This document shows positions 10,379-22,472 of a DNA stretch of 64,000 nt, piece after piece (position 1 is the stretch's first letter; each line of letters starts with the position of its first letter). Below the pieces are notes generated by a model. It searched no databases. It was not told the origin of the DNA and was given only the letters and a program-made list of their open reading frames with translations. This DNA is from a virus (Duplodnaviria > Heunggongvirae > Uroviricota > Caudoviricetes): IMG/VR virus record IMGVR_UViG_2713896908_000007, one strand, 5' to 3'. A program made the translations under genes and the position numbers.

Positions 10379-11521
10379 TTATCCAAACCAATTTTCTAGA
10401 ACATTTTCAAATTTATGGGTAACTTGCCACCATAAATAGTTCTCTAATACATATTTCTTTCCGTTATTTGCAATTTGTTCTAATTTTTCGGAGTGTAATG
10501 TTTCATATATATCACTAGCTAAACTTTCTGGCAACATTGGTTCATTTATATGAAATCCTGTATGGTTATTTTTTACAAATTCAACCATTCCACCTCGAGT
10601 GCTAACTAAAACGGGTTTTCCTGCCCCCATAGCTTCTATAGCAACCATGCAGAACGGTTCTTGAAACTGAGATGGGATTACAACTAGATCGGCTATAGGA
10701 TAGTAACGGTACATATCATCTGGTTTTACCCCGCCAACAAGATGACAACGCGAACCAATAGTTCCAGCAAGTTCCCTTACTTGTTTTTGATATGCAGCTT
10801 TTTCTCCTTTATCTTTATTATTGTAGTCACCAACAACTACAAGTTCTATATTGTCACATGATTTTATCAATTTTTTAAACGCTTGTAATAGTAAAACAGT
10901 CCCTTTTTCAGGGGAGATCCTTCCCGCATAAAAGATAACTTTTTTCTCAGAGGGAATGCCTAAATCTTGTTTTGTTAGCGGGGGTAGCCCTTTATCTAGA
11001 TTGTGTGGTTCTGTACCATTAGGAACTATACAAATTTCAGCGTCAGGAAGATGTTTTTCATAAAAATCCTTTAAATACTGACTTGGAACAAGCATTTTCA
11101 CATTGCTATCTAGCCCTTTCGGTGTAAAGGCATTATGCATATGCATTATCATTTTTGCGTCAGGAGCTTTCTCTCTAATTTGACGATAAAGTTTCATGCT
11201 GTTATGAACAATAATAATGCTATCGTTTGTGATATTGAAATCTTTAGCAATGTTTAACACTCGTTGTGAATATGGAATAGGATCTATTCTGCTCCATTTT
11301 TGAAATATCCGTTTATAAAGACGGCTAAACCCTATTCTATGGATAGAGCATCGCTCATTAACAATATCTTTTTCTGAGAAACCATCCTCTCGAATGCATG
11401 CTATACGATTTGGTATTCTTGTTCTCTTTGCGACTTGATATATCCAAGTTTCAACAGCTGCTGCGCCACGAGGTGGTATTGAAAATATTGGTGTAACTGT
11501 AAATATTAATTTGTCAATCAT
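10379..11521 (-). CDS. Glycosyltransferase, GT4/GT1-fold (380 aa)
   Basis: EPFCMVAIEAMGAGKPVLVSTRGG motif typical of GT4 enzymes; ATG 11521 with AAGAGGA 9 nt upstream; AT-rich. Confidence 0.85.
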   Translation of the reverse strand: MIDKLIFTVTPIFSIPPRGAAAVETWIYQVAKRTRIPNRIACIREDGFSEKDIVNERCSIHRIGFSRLYKRIFQKWSRIDPIPYSQRVLNIAKDFNITNDSIIIVHNSMKLYRQIREKAPDAKMIMHMHNAFTPKGLDSNVKMLVPSQYLKDFYEKHLPDAEICIVPNGTEPHNLDKGLPPLTKQDLGIPSEKKVIFYAGRISPEKGTVLLLQAFKKLIKSCDNIELVVVGDYNNKDKGEKAAYQKQVRELAGTIGSRCHLVGGVKPDDMYRYYPIADLVVIPSQFQEPFCMVAIEAMGAGKPVLVSTRGGMVEFVKNNHTGFHINEPMLPESLASDIYETLHSEKLEQIANNGKKYVLENYLWWQVTHKFENVLENWFG

Positions 11522-12065
11522 GAGCAACTATCCTCTTATAATCTTTTTCCTTTAAATGTTTTTTTGGGGTTGCGGGAGAGCCCGCATACATTGTATTAGC
11601 AGGAACATCAGTATTTACAACGCTATTTGCAGCTATAACACTATTGTCTCCTATTTTTACACCTGGTAGCACAGTTGTATTTGCCCCAATCCAAACATTA
11701 CGGCCTATTTTTATTGGAGCGCAAATTGTTTCTTTGGGACGTTTGCTTGGTGTTAGTGGATGCGTGACAGTTGTTAATACAACGTTGGGGCCAATGGCAG
11801 AGTTACATCCAATATCTATTGTTTTTGCATCGAGAAAAACACAATTTGCGTTAATGAAGACCTTTTTATCAATAATTATATTGCCATTCTCAAAATAAAA
11901 TGGAGCTGTTATTGTTGAGTCTTCACTTACTTTAACTCCTGTTTTTTTTAATGTGATTAATTTTTTTCTTTTTGAGATCAAGGTATAATTAAATATATGT
12001 CTTGCTTTCTTTGCTTTCTTTTTTTGAAAAATTATATAGAAATAATATGTTAGCAAATCAAACAT
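11514..12065 (-). CDS. Hexapeptide-repeat O-acetyltransferase (WbbJ/LacA-like, 183 aa)
   Basis: Left-handed beta-helix hexapeptide repeats (IGRNVWIGANTTVLPGVKIGDNSVIAANSVV); stop overlaps glycosyltransferase start in ATGATTGA. Confidence 0.8.
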   Translation of the reverse strand: MFDLLTYYFYIIFQKKKAKKARHIFNYTLISKRKKLITLKKTGVKVSEDSTITAPFYFENGNIIIDKKVFINANCVFLDAKTIDIGCNSAIGPNVVLTTVTHPLTPSKRPKETICAPIKIGRNVWIGANTTVLPGVKIGDNSVIAANSVVNTDVPANTMYAGSPATPKKHLKEKDYKRIVAHD

Positions 12066-12089
12066 TGTTGTTTTACTTCCATTTAAAAT

Positions 12090-12356
12090 TTAACTATCAA
12101 ATGTGGCTCCTATTTCTCGCATTTTGTTAAGTATGATGTTTATTTCATTGCTACCGAGAGAAGTTTGGGCAGCTATGAAAAAAAGTATGTGCAATGACAT
12201 AGATCTGTTATTTTCTTTGTTTATATATTTTCTCCACTGGCTATCGCTGCTGACCCCGGCTAGTTCTGCCATTTGATTCCCTGTATACCCAAGCGTTTCT
12301 TTGAATTGACGCAAATCTTGTGATTTGGGGGGGGTGTAGTTGTTTATTAACCTCAT
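12090..12356 (-). CDS. Small HTH-like protein (88 aa from ATG 12356; track ORF extends to TTG 12419)
   Basis: Segment LGYTGNQMAELAGVSSDSQWRKY resembles an XRE-type helix-turn-helix; AT-rich; start uncertain. Confidence 0.35.
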   Translation of the reverse strand: MRLINNYTPPKSQDLRQFKETLGYTGNQMAELAGVSSDSQWRKYINKENNRSMSLHILFFIAAQTSLGSNEINIILNKMREIGATFDS

Positions 12357-12494
12357 ATTAAACCCATTATTGGTAAGCTTTCGTTGGTGTAATGGTAGCA
12401 CCAATGGGGCTGCTGTCAAGCGTCTTTTCTTTATAAATATAGGGAGCCATCAAAATCTGACATTAATTATCTATCGAAATATTTTGAATGACTG

Positions 12495-12520
12495 GTGAGA
12501 AGTTACTTTGCATACCATTA
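12495..12520 (+). promoter_or_regulatory. Candidate late-promoter motif (GAGAAGTTACTTTGCATACCATTACC) upstream of lydA
   Basis: Recurrent AGTTACTTTGCAT-type motif, also upstream of lyz. Confidence 0.35.
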
Positions 12521-15826: not shown

Positions 15827-16209
15827 CACTATCAGCTATTGAGTTAATGGACCTCAGCGATAAGTTGGATGCTCTGATGTCCAAAGCTGCTACCGCGAGT
15901 GGCATGGAGTTGCTGGATATCAGCGATGAAATTGACCAGATCATGCAACAGATGGGGTACGGCGCGTCCGGCGGCGGTAGTGGCGAGGAAAAACAACCTT
16001 CAGTACATGATGGTGTGCCAAAACTGGTTGCTGATTTCCTGGCTGATAAATTCGTCGATCAGAGCACCGATGCATTTATCGGCACCTTGCAGGACTTGAG
16101 TCAATATGTTGGCACATACATCGACCTGGACCAGGTTAAACAGCACACGGCGGCATGGATAGCCGCCAACATTAAAGAGGCTTCAGGTGTTCGCAGCAAC
16201 TCTACATGA
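15823..16209 (+). CDS. ddrA: DdrA-like protein (128 aa)
   Basis: ATGA overlap with darA stop; followed by an intrinsic terminator. Confidence 0.6.
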   Translation: MTLSAIELMDLSDKLDALMSKAATASGMELLDISDEIDQIMQQMGYGASGGGSGEEKQPSVHDGVPKLVADFLADKFVDQSTDAFIGTLQDLSQYVGTYIDLDQVKQHTAAWIAANIKEASGVRSNST

Positions 16210-16270
16210 GCTGTAGTTTTCGAAGATTCTCACAAGTTCATTTCGCGTAGGTATTTATTTAACCATTAAA

Positions 16271-16308
16271 GCCGAATGCGGCGGGCACACCACATTCGGC
16301 AATTTTTT
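16271..16308 (+). terminator. Rho-independent terminator (GCCGAATG..CATTCGGC + TTTTTT)
   Basis: 8-bp stem 16271..16300 followed by AATTTTTT; between convergent ddrA and gldA. Confidence 0.7.
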
Positions 16309-16342
16309 GAAAACTATCAATGAATTAAATAATCAGAGGGGC

Positions 16343-17446
16343 TTATTCCCACTCTTGCAGGAAACGCTGACCGTACTGGTCGGCTACCAGCAGTGCAGCA
16401 TAAACCTGATCTGGCGTTGCGCCGCCAGGCATGTTGTGGATGGTTTCACCTTCTGCACATGCCGCTTCTGCGACAATCCGCATTTTCGCCGGGATATCTT
16501 CTTTAATATCCAGTTGTGCCAGGGTAATTGGCAGGCCGACAGCATGGCACAGCGCAGCTACGGTTTCGATTTCTTCAACTGGTGCGTTTTCCAGAACCAG
16601 TTGCGTCAGCGTACCGAATGCCACTTTCTCACCGTGATAATAGTGATGCGCATCCGGAATGGCCGTCAGGCCATTGTGCACCGCGTGCGCCGCCGCCAGG
16701 CCGCCGCTTTCAAAGCCCACGCCGCTCAAATAGGTGTTAGCTTCAATCACACGTTCCAGCGCCGGAGTCACCACATGCTGTTCAGCGGCAAGCATCGCTT
16801 TTTCGCCTTCTTCCAGCAGGGTGTTGTAGCACAGTTCAGCCAGAGCCAGTGCTGCCTGAGTACATTTACCGCCCGCCATCGTGGTTGCGCCGCTGCGGGA
16901 ACAGGCACGTGCTTCAAACCAGGTTGCCAACGCATCGCCAATACCCGCCGCTAACAGACGTGCAGGTGCGCCAGCAACAATTTTGGTATCCACAATGACG
17001 CGTTCCGGGTTGTTTGGCAGCATCAGATAACGTTCAAACTCACCATCATCGGTGTAGATAACGGAAAGGGCGCTGCAAGGTGCGTCGGTTGAGGCAATGG
17101 TTGGGGCAACTGCAACAGGAACGCCCATAAAGTGTGCCAGTGCTTTGGCTGTATCGAGGGTTTTACCTCCGCCGATTCCCAGAATTGCGCTACACTGAGC
17201 ATTCTCTGCAATACCCCGCAGACGATCGATTTCATTTTGCGAACATTCACCGCCGAACGGGGCAATTTCTACCTCTATTCCAGCATCTTTAAAACTTTTC
17301 TCAATATTAGTTTGAGCAAAACCTAACACAAATTTGTCACCTACCACCAACCAATGTTCTGCCAGCGGTTTCAGGTATTCACCCAGGCGATTAATGACAT
17401 CTGCGCCTTGGATGTATTTACCCGGTGATTGAATGATGCGGTCCAT
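16343..17446 (-). CDS. gldA: Glycerol dehydrogenase (GldA/DhaD family, 367 aa)
   Basis: Full-length iron-containing alcohol dehydrogenase fold; N-terminus [30 protein letters not shown] and [14 protein letters not shown] motif; AAGGAG 5 nt upstream of ATG. Confidence 0.9.
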
Positions 17447-17517
17447 AATTGCTCCTTTAGAGATGAGTTATGCTAAATGTTTTGTTATTCCCGGATGACC
17501 TTCTGTATATATCTTAA

Positions 17518-17536
17518 GTCAACATTATAAGTTGAC
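17518..17536. promoter_or_regulatory. Inverted repeat GTCAAC-N7-GTTGAC in gldA upstream region
   Basis: Perfect 6-bp arms in the divergent intergenic region between gldA and the 562-aa gene. Confidence 0.3.
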
Positions 17537-17749
17537 GCCAATATTCCGTAGAAGAGATGTTACTTCGCGAGCAGTATGACTCCATAGGTTTCTGAGACGT
17601 TACTTTGCATATGATATTGCTGAGGCAAATACATTCAATGCCGCATTTTTGTGAGATTTTAAGCCAATCTACATCACCATTAGGTAAGAGTATCTTTTTT
17701 TGGTGGTGATGGCGCAATGTATCAGTGGACAGCATAAGGTGTAACAGGG

Positions 17750-19438
17750 ATGTGTTTGAACGATCATACAGTTATGGCCACCAGCAGCGGCTACATCGGT
17801 GTGGCACCGTATACCCGCTTGCTATTACATCAGGCATCCGGCATCAAAGATATTATTCACCTGATCAGGCTGCTTTCCCGTACAGATCCCCAGGATGAAC
17901 AGCTTGTTCAAGTGCTTGCGCATTTTGTCCGAATGCCTGTTGCCGACGTGAAAAAATGGTGCCGATTATTCGGTATCAGCAATTCGTTACTTCGCGGATT
18001 GTTAAATCACGCATCCTCCCTTGGGCGCGACGGATTTGATGAGATAGCGCAGGCGATAAAAAACGGAGATATGCCACCAGCTATTGACTGGTTTTCCATT
18101 CGCCCAACCAGGGTGAAAGCATTCCTTAGTGCGGCGCAATCAGCATCACCATTGGCAGAAATGGTTCAGAGGTTGTCGCTCATATTCACAGATCATACCG
18201 CGTTCGGTGATCTGGCTCTGGACGAGATGAAAGAAGCCTCCATTCAGTGGGCCGCTCAACAAAATGAGGTTAACTCAGACTTCTTGCCAGCATTCAGGAA
18301 GGCCGTTAGTAAAGCGGATGATGCCCGTGGAATTCTGAAGGCATTTAAGGCATTGCAAAGTCGGGTTAATAAACATGTCGGTGATATCGATGGGGTAACG
18401 GCGGAAGGCAGGGATATCCTTAAAGAGCACGGCATAACGCCAGAGTTTATTGATGAGATCAGGACGGATATGCAGCGTGAGGTCGTATCGTCCCTGCAAA
18501 TTGTAGCCAGAGCGTTGGCGGATGCTAATCCGAAGAGTGCGGCCATTGTTAACCGGGTTATTGGTGATATTGAAGCATCGGAGGGCATGGGGGCGCTGAA
18601 ACTCTTCCTTTCGCGAGCGTTTAATCCTAACGGCAATATTCTCCCTGGCATTATTGGTGAGGCTAAAAGGTATGTCAGTGAAGAAGAACTTGAGCAGCTT
18701 GACCAACTACTTAAGCGATTCTCATATAACCCGCAGACACGCTGGCAAATGAATCAGCGAAGTATGGGTTCGGTCCACGAGAAAGTGTTATCTGCCATGA
18801 ACAGTGCGATCGCAAACTCATCCGTATCTGAAGAAAAAGCTCTTGAGTGGGCCGACTCTTTTATCACGGAAGAAGTGGAAGAAGCCCGCGCTGGACAGAA
18901 TGGTGGGATAGACCTGCGCAAGGAACTTGCTGATATTTATCGCCTGACCGGCGGTAAAATTTCGACCCTATCAAAGATAATTCACCACCAGGGAAGGGCA
19001 TATGCAAATCTTAATGGTATTGTTGCTGTCAATTTGAACGATGAAAATGCAAGCGCACTGTGGCACGAGCTTGGTCATCATCTTGAGTACAGTAACCCTG
19101 GTCTGTTAGAGAAAGCCAGGTCATTCCTGAAGGCCAATGTTGAAGGGGATAAGCCATCTTTCGTTAATATCGGTGGGCGTGGTAAACCTGAATGGTGCTT
19201 CAGATCTCGATTGAGTAATATTTATATGGCGAAGGTATACCCGCCAGCCTCAGTGAGTAACTCCGGGAAAATTCGGCAGAAAGCACCGACTATTTCCAAA
19301 ACGTCAGCAACGGAAGTATTCTCTATGGCTCTTCAGTTGTATCATGACAAAGAGGCCGCTGCCGCATCACTGATGAATGGTGACGGATTGCTGGAACTGT
19401 TATTAGGTGTGGCAAAGGAGCTAAATAATGCAGATTAA
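17750..19438 (+). CDS. Hypothetical protein with C-terminal zincin-like HExxH motif (562 aa)
   Basis: WHELGHHLEY motif near residue 440; AAGGTG 8 nt upstream of ATG; no other recognised domain. Confidence 0.7.
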   Translation: MCLNDHTVMATSSGYIGVAPYTRLLLHQASGIKDIIHLIRLLSRTDPQDEQLVQVLAHFVRMPVADVKKWCRLFGISNSLLRGLLNHASSLGRDGFDEIAQAIKNGDMPPAIDWFSIRPTRVKAFLSAAQSASPLAEMVQRLSLIFTDHTAFGDLALDEMKEASIQWAAQQNEVNSDFLPAFRKAVSKADDARGILKAFKALQSRVNKHVGDIDGVTAEGRDILKEHGITPEFIDEIRTDMQREVVSSLQIVARALADANPKSAAIVNRVIGDIEASEGMGALKLFLSRAFNPNGNILPGIIGEAKRYVSEEELEQLDQLLKRFSYNPQTRWQMNQRSMGSVHEKVLSAMNSAIANSSVSEEKALEWADSFITEEVEEARAGQNGGIDLRKELADIYRLTGGKISTLSKIIHHQGRAYANLNGIVAVNLNDENASALWHELGHHLEYSNPGLLEKARSFLKANVEGDKPSFVNIGGRGKPEWCFRSRLSNIYMAKVYPPASVSNSGKIRQKAPTISKTSATEVFSMALQLYHDKEAAAASLMNGDGLLELLLGVAKELNNAD

Positions 19439-19733
19439 AATCGCAGCGCCATTAGGCGGAGATGCAATTATCGAATTTGATGATAATGAAGAAGTTTCCG
19501 GGCGTTTAAGCATTATCTCCGGTGACATTACCGAGGACATGATCGCTGAAGCCATAGCTGGAGCAAATCCCAATAGCTATATGGGATTCGTTAACTCCCT
19601 TGATGCTCCCGCAAGCGATGTTCTCCGAACGCTGCATCTTTACGCTGGCTGGTTTGTTGATTGGCCAGCAGTAGAGGGTGGCGATGAGGACGACGATGAT
19701 TTCGGTGATAATATTAATCAGATTATATTTTAA
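19428..19733 (+). CDS. Small acidic protein (101 aa), translationally coupled to upstream gene
   Basis: ATG 19428 with AAGGAG 7 nt upstream, overlapping upstream stop by 11 nt; acidic C-terminus EGGDEDDDDFGDN. Confidence 0.6.
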   Translation: MQIKIAAPLGGDAIIEFDDNEEVSGRLSIISGDITEDMIAEAIAGANPNSYMGFVNSLDAPASDVLRTLHLYAGWFVDWPAVEGGDEDDDDFGDNINQIIF

Positions 19734-19892
19734 CCCATATGAGATATAATCGTTCTAATGGCATAAAGTTAGATTGTTCTTATATTCGACTTTGTGCCAT
19801 CATTAGGACTAATCATTTAGGGGTTCTTTTAGGTAGAAATTTAGCAATACATGTTTAGTATGGCAATATTTTCTAAAGGAGTTAGGTAAAAA

Positions 19893-20771
19893 GTGAAAAG
19901 AATTATTCCTGATAAAAAATGGTTAAAAGAAGAAAGCAGTAAGCGACAAGTGCCATCAGAATGTCCCTATGCAAATTCATATCGATGTCCTAGATATCAC
20001 GAAAGTGTTATTTTGTTCTCACAGATGCAAATGATTGATGGCATGTCATATAATAAAGAGAAGGAGTTGAAACAGTTCTGGGAGAGAACCGACCTCTCTT
20101 CTTTATGTAATGGAGAAACCCCGTTGGTCTCAAAAAATGATAAAGGCGGGATTTTCTCTATAGATAATTTCTGTCCAGAAATATCGTTTAGATATTTAGG
20201 TTACTATGCAGACTATATGCTGAGATACATTGATGAAGATGCTCACACTATAGGGTATGGCATAGCTAAAAGAGATCAGAAAGAAAATGATTGGAAGTAT
20301 GATTGGTCCGAGGTCAATGCTGTTTTCTATGAGGATTGTTACCTCTTTGAGAGAGTTAAACAATTCAATAAAGAACTTCATGATAGTTTCTTTAAAAGAC
20401 TACATCCGAATATTGTAATGCAAATAAGTAGAATGGATAAGTGTTTGGACTCAAATGACCCAACCGGTGTTTTGCATGCGGCATCTAATATTCTAGAAAC
20501 AATGGCTAAAGAAATATTAGATGATCCAAATGTATTAAATAAATCGTTTGGCTCTTTTTTTGAGAAGTTTAAAAAAGAGTCAAAGTTGCCGTTAGGGTTT
20601 ATTAATGCAGTTAAAGATATTTATGACTTACGTAATAAAATACCTACTGCTGGTCATGGGGGGGTGGGGATGCCTGGGTTATCTTTATCTGATGCCATAA
20701 TGATTGCTGCATCAACAAAGGCTATTGTAGAGATTGAGTACAGAAACATTGATGTGGCTGCTATTGATTGA
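19893..20771 (+). CDS. AT-rich hypothetical protein, possible abortive-infection-type protein (292 aa)
   Basis: Low-GC Lys-rich ORF with own upstream AT-rich region and AAGGAG; C-terminal DIYDLRNKIPTAGHGG resembles Abi/HEPN-type R..H motifs (weak). Confidence 0.55.
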   Translation: MKRIIPDKKWLKEESSKRQVPSECPYANSYRCPRYHESVILFSQMQMIDGMSYNKEKELKQFWERTDLSSLCNGETPLVSKNDKGGIFSIDNFCPEISFRYLGYYADYMLRYIDEDAHTIGYGIAKRDQKENDWKYDWSEVNAVFYEDCYLFERVKQFNKELHDSFFKRLHPNIVMQISRMDKCLDSNDPTGVLHAASNILETMAKEILDDPNVLNKSFGSFFEKFKKESKLPLGFINAVKDIYDLRNKIPTAGHGGVGMPGLSLSDAIMIAASTKAIVEIEYRNIDVAAID

Positions 20772-20811
20772 GCTAATATAGCGAGGTTCCTTTTTGTATC
20801 GTTCGAATTAT

Positions 20812-20829
20812 CCCCGCCTGTCGGCGGGG
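20812..20829. terminator. GC hairpin CCCCGCC-tgtc-GGCGGGG between convergent genes (no clear U-run)
   Basis: Perfect 7-bp stem; separates 292-aa gene from 260-aa gene. Confidence 0.35.
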
Positions 20830-22367: not shown

Positions 22368-22385
22368 AAGTGATTTGCATTATCC
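22368..22385 (+). promoter_or_regulatory. Candidate late-promoter motif (AAGTGATTTGCATTATCC) upstream of lyz
   Basis: Resembles the motif upstream of lydA. Confidence 0.3.
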
Positions 22386-22472
22386 TGTGCCTTCTAAAGG
22401 GATCGAGTCAGTCGGTATTGGCTGTGAATGGGTGTTTGTCCTGGAGCGTAAAATTTCGCTTATGAGGTCTTT

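Follow-up and report, generated by a model that had tools for sequence, protein, structure and literature searches.

A one-gene cargo cassette in a P1-type phage-plasmid encodes a probable sensor-HEPN defence protein

Introduction

What does a lone AT-rich gene do between two backbone genes of a P1-type phage-plasmid? The question is raised by a stretch of 64,000 nucleotides of viral DNA (Caudoviricetes; IMG/VR record IMGVR_UViG_2713896908_000007), called the window here at its full length, in which an open reading frame (ORF) of 292 amino acids (aa) lies on the plus strand between hxr and an isaA-like gene. A sequence-only reading of this DNA had taken the gene for a horizontally acquired single-gene defence cassette and had seen at its C-terminus a weak resemblance to Abi_C and other HEPN-type domains. 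We find that the encoded protein consists of two modules, each of which occurs independently in many other proteins. In our view, the gene probably encodes a self-contained, single-polypeptide protein for abortive infection or for defence against mobile genetic elements (MGEs), with an N-terminal Cys4 domain as sensor or regulator and with a HEPN domain at the C-terminus as effector, carried by the phage-plasmid as accessory cargo. Judged from fold, motifs, architecture and genomic position, defence is the most likely function.

An AT-rich one-gene insert in the P1 backbone

The genes around the cargo gene (ddrB, which is truncated here, hxr, the isaA-like gene, ssb, lyz and pro) belong to the backbone of phage P1. 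In blastn comparisons with P1, a second P1 isolate (MH422554) and P7, the backbone identity of 96-97% stops at 19733/19734, where hxr ends, and resumes at 20829/20836, and the insert between these points (19735-20828) contains a leader, one ORF and a hairpin. The GC content is 0.354 in the ORF and 0.308 in its 159-bp leader, as compared to 0.473 across the window; the hxr and isaA genes on either side have 0.45-0.47. It starts with GTG and ends with TGA; the GTG start is supported because all homologues begin with M-x-R-I-(I/V)-P-D-K, and the ORF is not a chance occurrence, since it has 29 close homologues of 44-73% identity. RefSeq lists the identical coding sequence as hypothetical protein WP_029791854.1, located on a 100-kb plasmid of the IncY 'phage' type whose corresponding region is 99.9% identical. 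A purine-rich Shine-Dalgarno (SD) sequence, AAGGAG (19876-19881), lies 11 nt upstream of the start, with an AGG at 19884-19886. DNA similarity between the contexts of the homologues is confined to the ORF, starting at 19883, and the leader is not conserved. An antisense ORF of 61 aa within the cargo gene (20196-20381, minus strand) is without support and probably a by-product of the AT-rich composition.

Downstream of the gene, sequence and RNAfold both show a hairpin (CCCCGCC-TGTC-GGCGGGG, 20812-20829) with a 7-bp stem and a 4-nt loop. A role as terminator is putative, since neither strand has a U-tract and the structure was not among the terminators predicted by the scan. The AT-rich ORF, the AT-rich upstream region with its SD sequence and the GC hairpin that the sequence-only reading had described are all present, and its view of a horizontally acquired single-gene cassette is borne out by a 1,094-bp one-gene insert in the P1 backbone, in a slot between hxr and ssb that holds other cargo elsewhere, by the rarity of the gene among E. 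coli genomes (see below) and by the GC content of the homologues, 33-36% in hosts of 40-59%.

The hxr-ssb interval is variable among P1-like phages and is a general cargo site. P1 carries isaB, IS1 and isaA there, MH422554 a different gene pair and P7 the porin gene nmpC (positions 2374-3489 of our locus L012). The MH422554 slot includes a 364-aa gene labelled 'terminase large subunit' (positions 1669-2763 of locus L011), an implausible label at such a position.

The cassette itself is rare. Of 5,426 complete E. coli genomes, 5 have it, in each case on a plasmid, as compared to about 450 records with the P1 backbone at 95-99% identity. Seven plasmids in PLSDB carry it, and none of 50,697 deposited phage genomes does. 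These numbers bear on the idea that the gene serves the phage's own lytic programme or counter-defence, being expressed by read-through from the late darA-ddrB-hxr operon and acting on host RNA or defence transcripts. Such a role would fit the location of the gene, which lies immediately downstream of the Dar antirestriction operon in the same orientation, and the fact that scans of the leader detected no independent promoter. However, the gene is present in only about 1% of P1-like elements (5 records as opposed to about 450) and in no deposited phage genome. Moreover, its homologues also occur in unrelated contexts without Dar genes, including plain chromosomal sites, and the combination of a sensor with an effector is typical of host-protective systems. 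We therefore regard a lytic or counter-defence role as improbable.

A C-terminal module with a modelled HEPN fold

The HEPN superfamily (Anantharaman et al. 2013; Pfam clan CL0291) has been defined by, among other features, a second acidic residue in helix 2, typically within an Ex3[K/R] motif, and frequently by an insert between helices 2 and 3; the classical motif is Rx4-6H, which is not obligatory for membership (PMC3710099). According to its structural model, the C-terminal module of the cargo protein (residues 165-288) has this fold. In a Foldseek search, the top-ranked families were ones cited for the HEPN fold, with weak E-values, and the viral fold library BFVD gave no significant match. 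R247-N248 and H255 take the positions of the HEPN motif, with the arginine at the end of model helix 73-88 and the histidine in the loop that follows. E202-T-M-A-K206 lies in model helix 29-48, which corresponds to helix 2, and conforms to Ex3[K/R]; the inserted helix is present as well.

The conservation of these residues is of the kind seen in catalytic sites. Among 187 sequences of the C-terminal domain, E202, R247 and H255 are invariant, and K206, R180, D189 and G256 are conserved in 99%. The spacer between R-N and the histidine comprises six residues in 183 of the 187, so that seven residues separate the arginine from the histidine (R-N-K-I-P-T-A-G-H). This R-x7-H spacing is the sole departure from the HEPN definition. 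In the R-Phi-X-H notation used for Abi_C, in which X ranges from 2 to 6, the module has an X of 6 and thus lies at the upper edge.

The long spacing could be taken to mean that the domain is a non-catalytic one that binds RNA or a ligand, as in MtlR or human sacsin, and that the protein is a regulator. Indeed, several HEPN families are non-enzymatic (PMC3710099). However, non-catalytic HEPN domains typically lose the R/H dyad (PMC3710099), whereas here R247, H255 and E202 are retained in all and K206 in 99% of 187 diverse sequences, with a fixed spacer. Furthermore, Abi_C spacers reach the same length, and a version that is shorter by one residue is an active ribonuclease (RNase) (PMC13590631). 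A purely regulatory HEPN domain thus seems very unlikely to us, and we favour an effector that would act as an RNase.

The segment that the sequence-only reading had quoted, FINAVKDIYDLRNKIPTAGHGG (residues 236-257 of the 292-aa protein), contains this motif. Its assignment of an Abi_C/HEPN-like C-terminus was correct at the level of the superfamily, given the HEPN fold of the model, the complete conservation of R247 and H255 at the motif position and the Ex3K motif, and its remark that the R..H spacing is non-canonical also holds, since R-x7-H instead of Rx4-6H is fixed in the subfamily. What it missed was the two-module make-up of the protein, with a separate and widespread N-terminal domain.

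A widespread Cys4 domain at the N-terminus

In an exhaustive profile search, which yielded 576 representatives, each half of the protein was also found without the other. The C-terminal module is found in proteins of 130-921 aa, mostly at the C-terminus and occasionally at the N-terminus, and is joined to at least 30 unrelated N-terminal regions, which include WD40 repeats, pentapeptide repeats and a weak match to AAA_16/STAND-like ATPases. The largest of these partner groups, with 72 proteins, is weakly AbiJ_NTD4-like. That the N-terminal module is itself a divergent version of this AbiJ_NTD4-like domain was considered and rejected, as hhalign gave a probability of below 2%; the same low value separates it from the other N-terminal families found on the C-terminal domain.

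The N-terminal module (residues 1-164) forms a much larger family, with 635 clusters at 90% identity in a large database (P0271-P0385 and others). Most members have about 170-235 aa and short C-terminal tails. In 58 of 107 cases the tail contains one hydrophobic transmembrane helix; others have an amphipathic helix. The commonest form is a protein of about 200 aa that ends in a helix of either kind. One protein of this type, P0278, is encoded in a phage-like region together with Rad52, PD-(D/E)XK and DUF932 genes. In other cases the module is joined with TIR_2 or with a TIR domain of the CAP12/Pycsar type that matches the effector half of the PADLOC candidate PDC-S35, and seven further C-terminal families, unrelated to the transmembrane and TIR partners, were found on the same module.

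Across 53 N-terminal module sequences with varied C-terminal partners, Cys24, Cys32, Cys94, Cys149, W10, P95 and E96 are invariant, and W63, W134 and W138 are conserved in 98%. Three of the four invariant cysteines, whose codons lie at 19962-19964 (Cys24), 19986-19988 (Cys32), 20172-20174 (Cys94) and 20337-20339 (Cys149), stand in Cys-Pro. Four invariant cysteines in a cytoplasmic domain suggest that it may bind Zn or an Fe-S cluster. Searches of Pfam, PADLOC, PHROGs and NCBIfam gave no match to the module. Profile searches against PDB sequences with the whole family, the C-terminal domain and the N-terminal domain returned nothing meaningful, the top matches being synaptobrevin, acetylcholine receptor and SopA at E > 0.2.

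On this basis, we tentatively raise the possibility that the N-terminal domain is a new and widespread sensor module that may hold a metal or Fe-S site and that defines an as yet unrecognised family of abortive-infection systems, each a single protein, in which the killing module can be exchanged, be it a C-terminal transmembrane helix, TIR, HEPN or another. Within this family, the product of the P1 cargo gene would represent the version armed with HEPN, of a subfamily with a fixed and unusually long R-x7-H loop.

Homologues at defence hotspots and the question of an addiction toxin

The full-length architecture is uncommon but widely distributed. It forms 29 clusters among 5.8 billion proteins and is present in at least 9 of 185,579 species representatives, a lower bound because that search was pattern-limited, from Gamma- and Betaproteobacteria and Desulfobulbaceae. 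It also occurs in nine IMG/VR prophage contigs, of which five are P2-like and carry the gene between GpA and the portal gene GpQ; in a more divergent P2-like lineage (portal 65% and gene 43% identical), the gene likewise lies next to the portal gene. In P2 phages, the GpA-GpQ interval serves as the main hotspot for defence genes (PMC13586616). While Klebsiella-type prophages carry the homologue there, the slot of the related phage vB_EcoM-813R9 holds a HEPN protein of the Ymh family (positions 5819-6970 of locus L035), such that one HEPN effector is swapped for another at this site.

The contexts outside P2-like prophages are diverse. The Serratia homologue adjoins a Gabija-like OLD-TOPRIM ATPase and a UvrD helicase, the one from Pectobacterium lies in an island with an integrase and tRNA-Pro at its borders, and that of Salmonella occupies a tail-fibre moron site of a prophage. 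The remaining contexts are lone insertions. In Salmonella (positions 9181-10867 of locus L004) and Serratia (9176-10867 of locus L008), a gene for a 232-aa DUF4145 protein, which belongs to a HEPN family, precedes the homologue in a two-gene block, and the two blocks are 96.5% identical, which indicates a recent transfer of this tandem HEPN pair. DUF4145 was rejected as an obligate partner, because the two copies count as a single shared block and none of the other 22 contexts has the gene. No neighbouring gene is conserved across the 24 contexts.

Since HEPN domains are frequent as toxins of toxin-antitoxin systems, and since a low-copy plasmid prophage benefits from addiction, the protein could instead be an addiction-type toxin that stabilises the phage-plasmid by post-segregational killing, or else a general stress RNase, rather than an anti-phage protein. 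The Xre-like hxr, directly upstream on the same strand, would be an antitoxin candidate. Yet hxr is a P1 backbone gene that is also present in P1 phages without the cassette, and it was rejected as a dedicated Xre-type antitoxin for this reason. Nor does the cassette offer another candidate: no gene for a nucleotidyltransferase (MNT) antitoxin, as in HEPN/MNT systems of type II (or VII), is found in it or conserved nearby in the 24 contexts, a search of the cassette for a type III antitoxin RNA, as in ToxIN, AbiF and AbiV-like Abi systems, revealed no tandem repeats, direct-repeat array or Rfam family, and the only small ORF considered as a partner (39 aa, 19739-19858) falls within the leader, which is not shared by other homologues, and was likewise rejected. 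Furthermore, homologues reside in chromosomes and in integrated P2 prophages, for which addiction would make little sense, and they do so specifically at defence hotspots. An addiction toxin or stress RNase is therefore unlikely. We judge all three alternatives, namely a lytic or counter-defence RNase, a non-catalytic HEPN domain and an addiction toxin, to be less likely than defence.

How the protein may act, and what weighs against a role in defence

If the cargo protein indeed is a defence protein, one can envisage that in the resting state, the N-terminal domain keeps the HEPN domain in an inactive form. Upon a signal from an infecting phage or some other invader, the N-terminal domain or the oligomeric state of the protein would then change, such that the HEPN active site, composed of R247, N248 and H255 with the help of E202 and K206, assembles, probably across a dimer interface. 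The predicted enzyme would cleave cellular and/or phage RNA, be it mRNA, rRNA or tRNA, and the ensuing halt of translation would prevent the invader from replicating.

Several observations weigh against this interpretation. In a search of Pfam, a check of the kind that the sequence-only reading had proposed, Abi_C (PF14355) was the sole family to respond, but it did so below its gathering threshold of 24 bits: the full protein scored 13.9 bits and the domain alone 16.0 bits. Abi_C also matches only 2 of 49 members of the wider C-domain family. The protein as such has no match in PADLOC (PADLOC-DB v2, E<=1), NCBIfam or PHROGs. Its R-to-H spacer of seven lies outside the classical Rx4-6H by one residue, and some HEPN domains are non-catalytic. 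Also, a few homologues are found among housekeeping genes without MGE markers. In the full-length AlphaFold2 model, which was built with 25 sequences, the N-terminal domain has a predicted local distance difference test (pLDDT) score of about 50, and because this part of the model is poor, autoinhibition and metal binding are guesses. Finally, expression in the lysogen is putative only, since the promoter scans found no promoter.

With respect to the last point, the scan of the leader identified no sigma-70-like promoter above chance, nor was a P1 late-promoter box found there, and the single match to this box within the ORF is at chance level. An independent transcription of the cargo gene is thus putative. 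As for Abi_C, sub-threshold matches to it were found in 13 of 25 close homologues (best E-value 4e-4), PF14355 is the precomputed label of two relatives, and NCBI gives the name 'abortive infection family protein' to an E. coli fragment of 67% identity. Among the relatives, PADLOC matches only the TIR halves. We conclude that the C-terminal domain probably constitutes a HEPN subfamily that is adjacent to Abi_C and is not covered by the Abi_C model.

Features of the locus and of the neighbouring region

The features of the locus are collected in Table 1.

Table 1. Coordinates of the cargo cassette, the encoded modules and motifs, and the flanking genes in the window.
Feature	Position	Strand	Basis
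Cargo cassette of 1,094 bp, inserted between hxr and isaA of P1	19735..20828	+	blastn against P1 (NC_005856), MH422554 and P7; GC 0.31-0.35 vs 0.47
AT-rich leader with SD-like AAGGAG and AGG	19735..19892	+	sequence, GC 0.308
292-aa gene	19893..20771	+	ORF list, RefSeq, homologues
N-terminal module, aa 1-164, alpha+beta domain	19893..20384	+	boundary from hidden Markov model envelopes; conservation over 53 sequences
C-terminal module, aa 165-292, predicted HEPN-fold domain	20385..20768	+	
E202-T-M-A-K206, Ex3[K/R] motif of HEPN helix 2	20496..20510	+	conservation in 187 sequences; model helix 29-48
R247/H255 motif region	20631..20660	+	conservation in 187 sequences; position relative to model helices
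GC hairpin between cargo gene and isaA, which are convergent; its end coincides with the cassette/backbone junction	20812..20829	.	RNAfold
hxr (101 aa, Xre-like), final gene of the darA/ddrB operon	19428..19733	+	PHROG 2292, P1 annotation
isaA-like gene, 260 aa	20836..21618	-	PHROG 2326, P1 annotation

Upstream of the cassette, the window shows a further departure from P1. A segment of 1,610 bp (16182-17791) replaces the first ~1.34 kb of P1 ddrB and leaves a C-terminal ddrB remnant of 562 aa (17750-19438). The segment contains an intact gldA gene (16343-17446, minus strand) for a glycerol dehydrogenase of 367 aa, which is 89-92% identical to the gldA copies of E. coli. The gldA/ddrB junction was found in no E. 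coli genome of the collection, and it is odd for the Dar antirestriction operon to contain a metabolic gene. A second AT-rich stretch (10000-12500, GC 0.30-0.37) lies upstream of the lydA region. On a related plasmid, the corresponding part of the map contains tail-fibre genes and a small recombinase, and 12000-12495 of the window has no alignment to that plasmid. Regarding late transcription, an exact copy of LPlyz, an annotated P1 late promoter, is located upstream of lyz (22368-22386), and a relative with two mismatches lies upstream of the lydA/darA operon (12500-12518).

Significance

To a specialist, yet another HEPN gene of the Abi type in a cargo slot of a phage will come as no surprise. 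What is new here is, first, the hxr-isaA slot of P1 as a carrier of cargo of this kind; second, a large unannotated Cys4 N-terminal domain that fronts transmembrane, TIR and HEPN effectors; and third, what by its sequences appears to be a HEPN subfamily that is missed by curated models and by PADLOC and whose R-x7-H loop is fixed. P1-type phage-plasmids are common in Enterobacteriaceae and are known carriers of resistance genes. If our interpretation is correct, they occasionally also carry a compact one-gene RNase defence that escapes annotation and defence-finding tools, and the accepted active-site geometry of HEPN domains would have to be widened to include the fixed R-x7-H loop. Of more general value is the N-terminal domain, since the cue that it may sense would account for how many single-protein immune systems, with transmembrane, TIR and HEPN killing modules, are switched on.

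Comparison with known systems

The closest known systems are the AbiJ and Abi_C proteins. Among them, SadR from Staphylococcus aureus, which has an Abi_C domain and is the closest protein with experimental data, requires the R, N and H of its RNEYGDAH motif for RNase activity as well as for defence against phages and plasmids (PMC13590631, 2026). Like the cargo gene, these systems consist of a single gene for a protein of about 270-290 aa that combines a variable N-terminal domain with a C-terminal HEPN domain, they have an R-polar-x(n)-H motif in the last 120 residues, and they are carried on plasmids and other MGEs. A sharing of AbiJ-family N-terminal domains among HEPN, TIR and other effectors was described in 2013, and the cargo N-terminal domain follows the same logic with its transmembrane, TIR and HEPN partners. 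There are differences, however. Abi_C spacers after the polar position comprise 2-6 residues, most commonly five (PMC13590631), whereas that of the cargo family is fixed at six after R-N, and the cargo family has the additional invariant residues N173 and R180 in helix 1. In contrast to AbiJ, the N-terminal domain (residues 1-164) matches none of the Pfam AbiJ domains NTD1-5 and is unrelated to the AbiJ_NTD4-like domain.

HepS, a HEPN abortive-infection protein of the Gifsy-1 prophage, is also among the closest systems and has the same self-contained sensor-effector style. The toxins of HEPN/MNT systems (SO_3166, 7ae2 and HEPN-T of the AF0298 type) are stand-alone domains of about 130 aa that are neutralised by an adjacent MNT nucleotidyltransferase, whereas the cargo protein lacks such a partner and has a fused N-terminal domain instead.

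A further comparison is with PDC-S35 and the TIR effectors of CAP12/Pycsar. The cargo gene differs from PDC-S35 and from Pycsar/CBASS in that its effector is a predicted HEPN and not a TIR domain, and that it is not accompanied by a cyclase or another signal-generating partner gene. Nevertheless, a relative of its N-terminal domain, P0168, has the same TIR effector half as PDC-S35 and CAP12, and this shared half shows that the N-terminal domain serves established defence effectors as an alternative front end.
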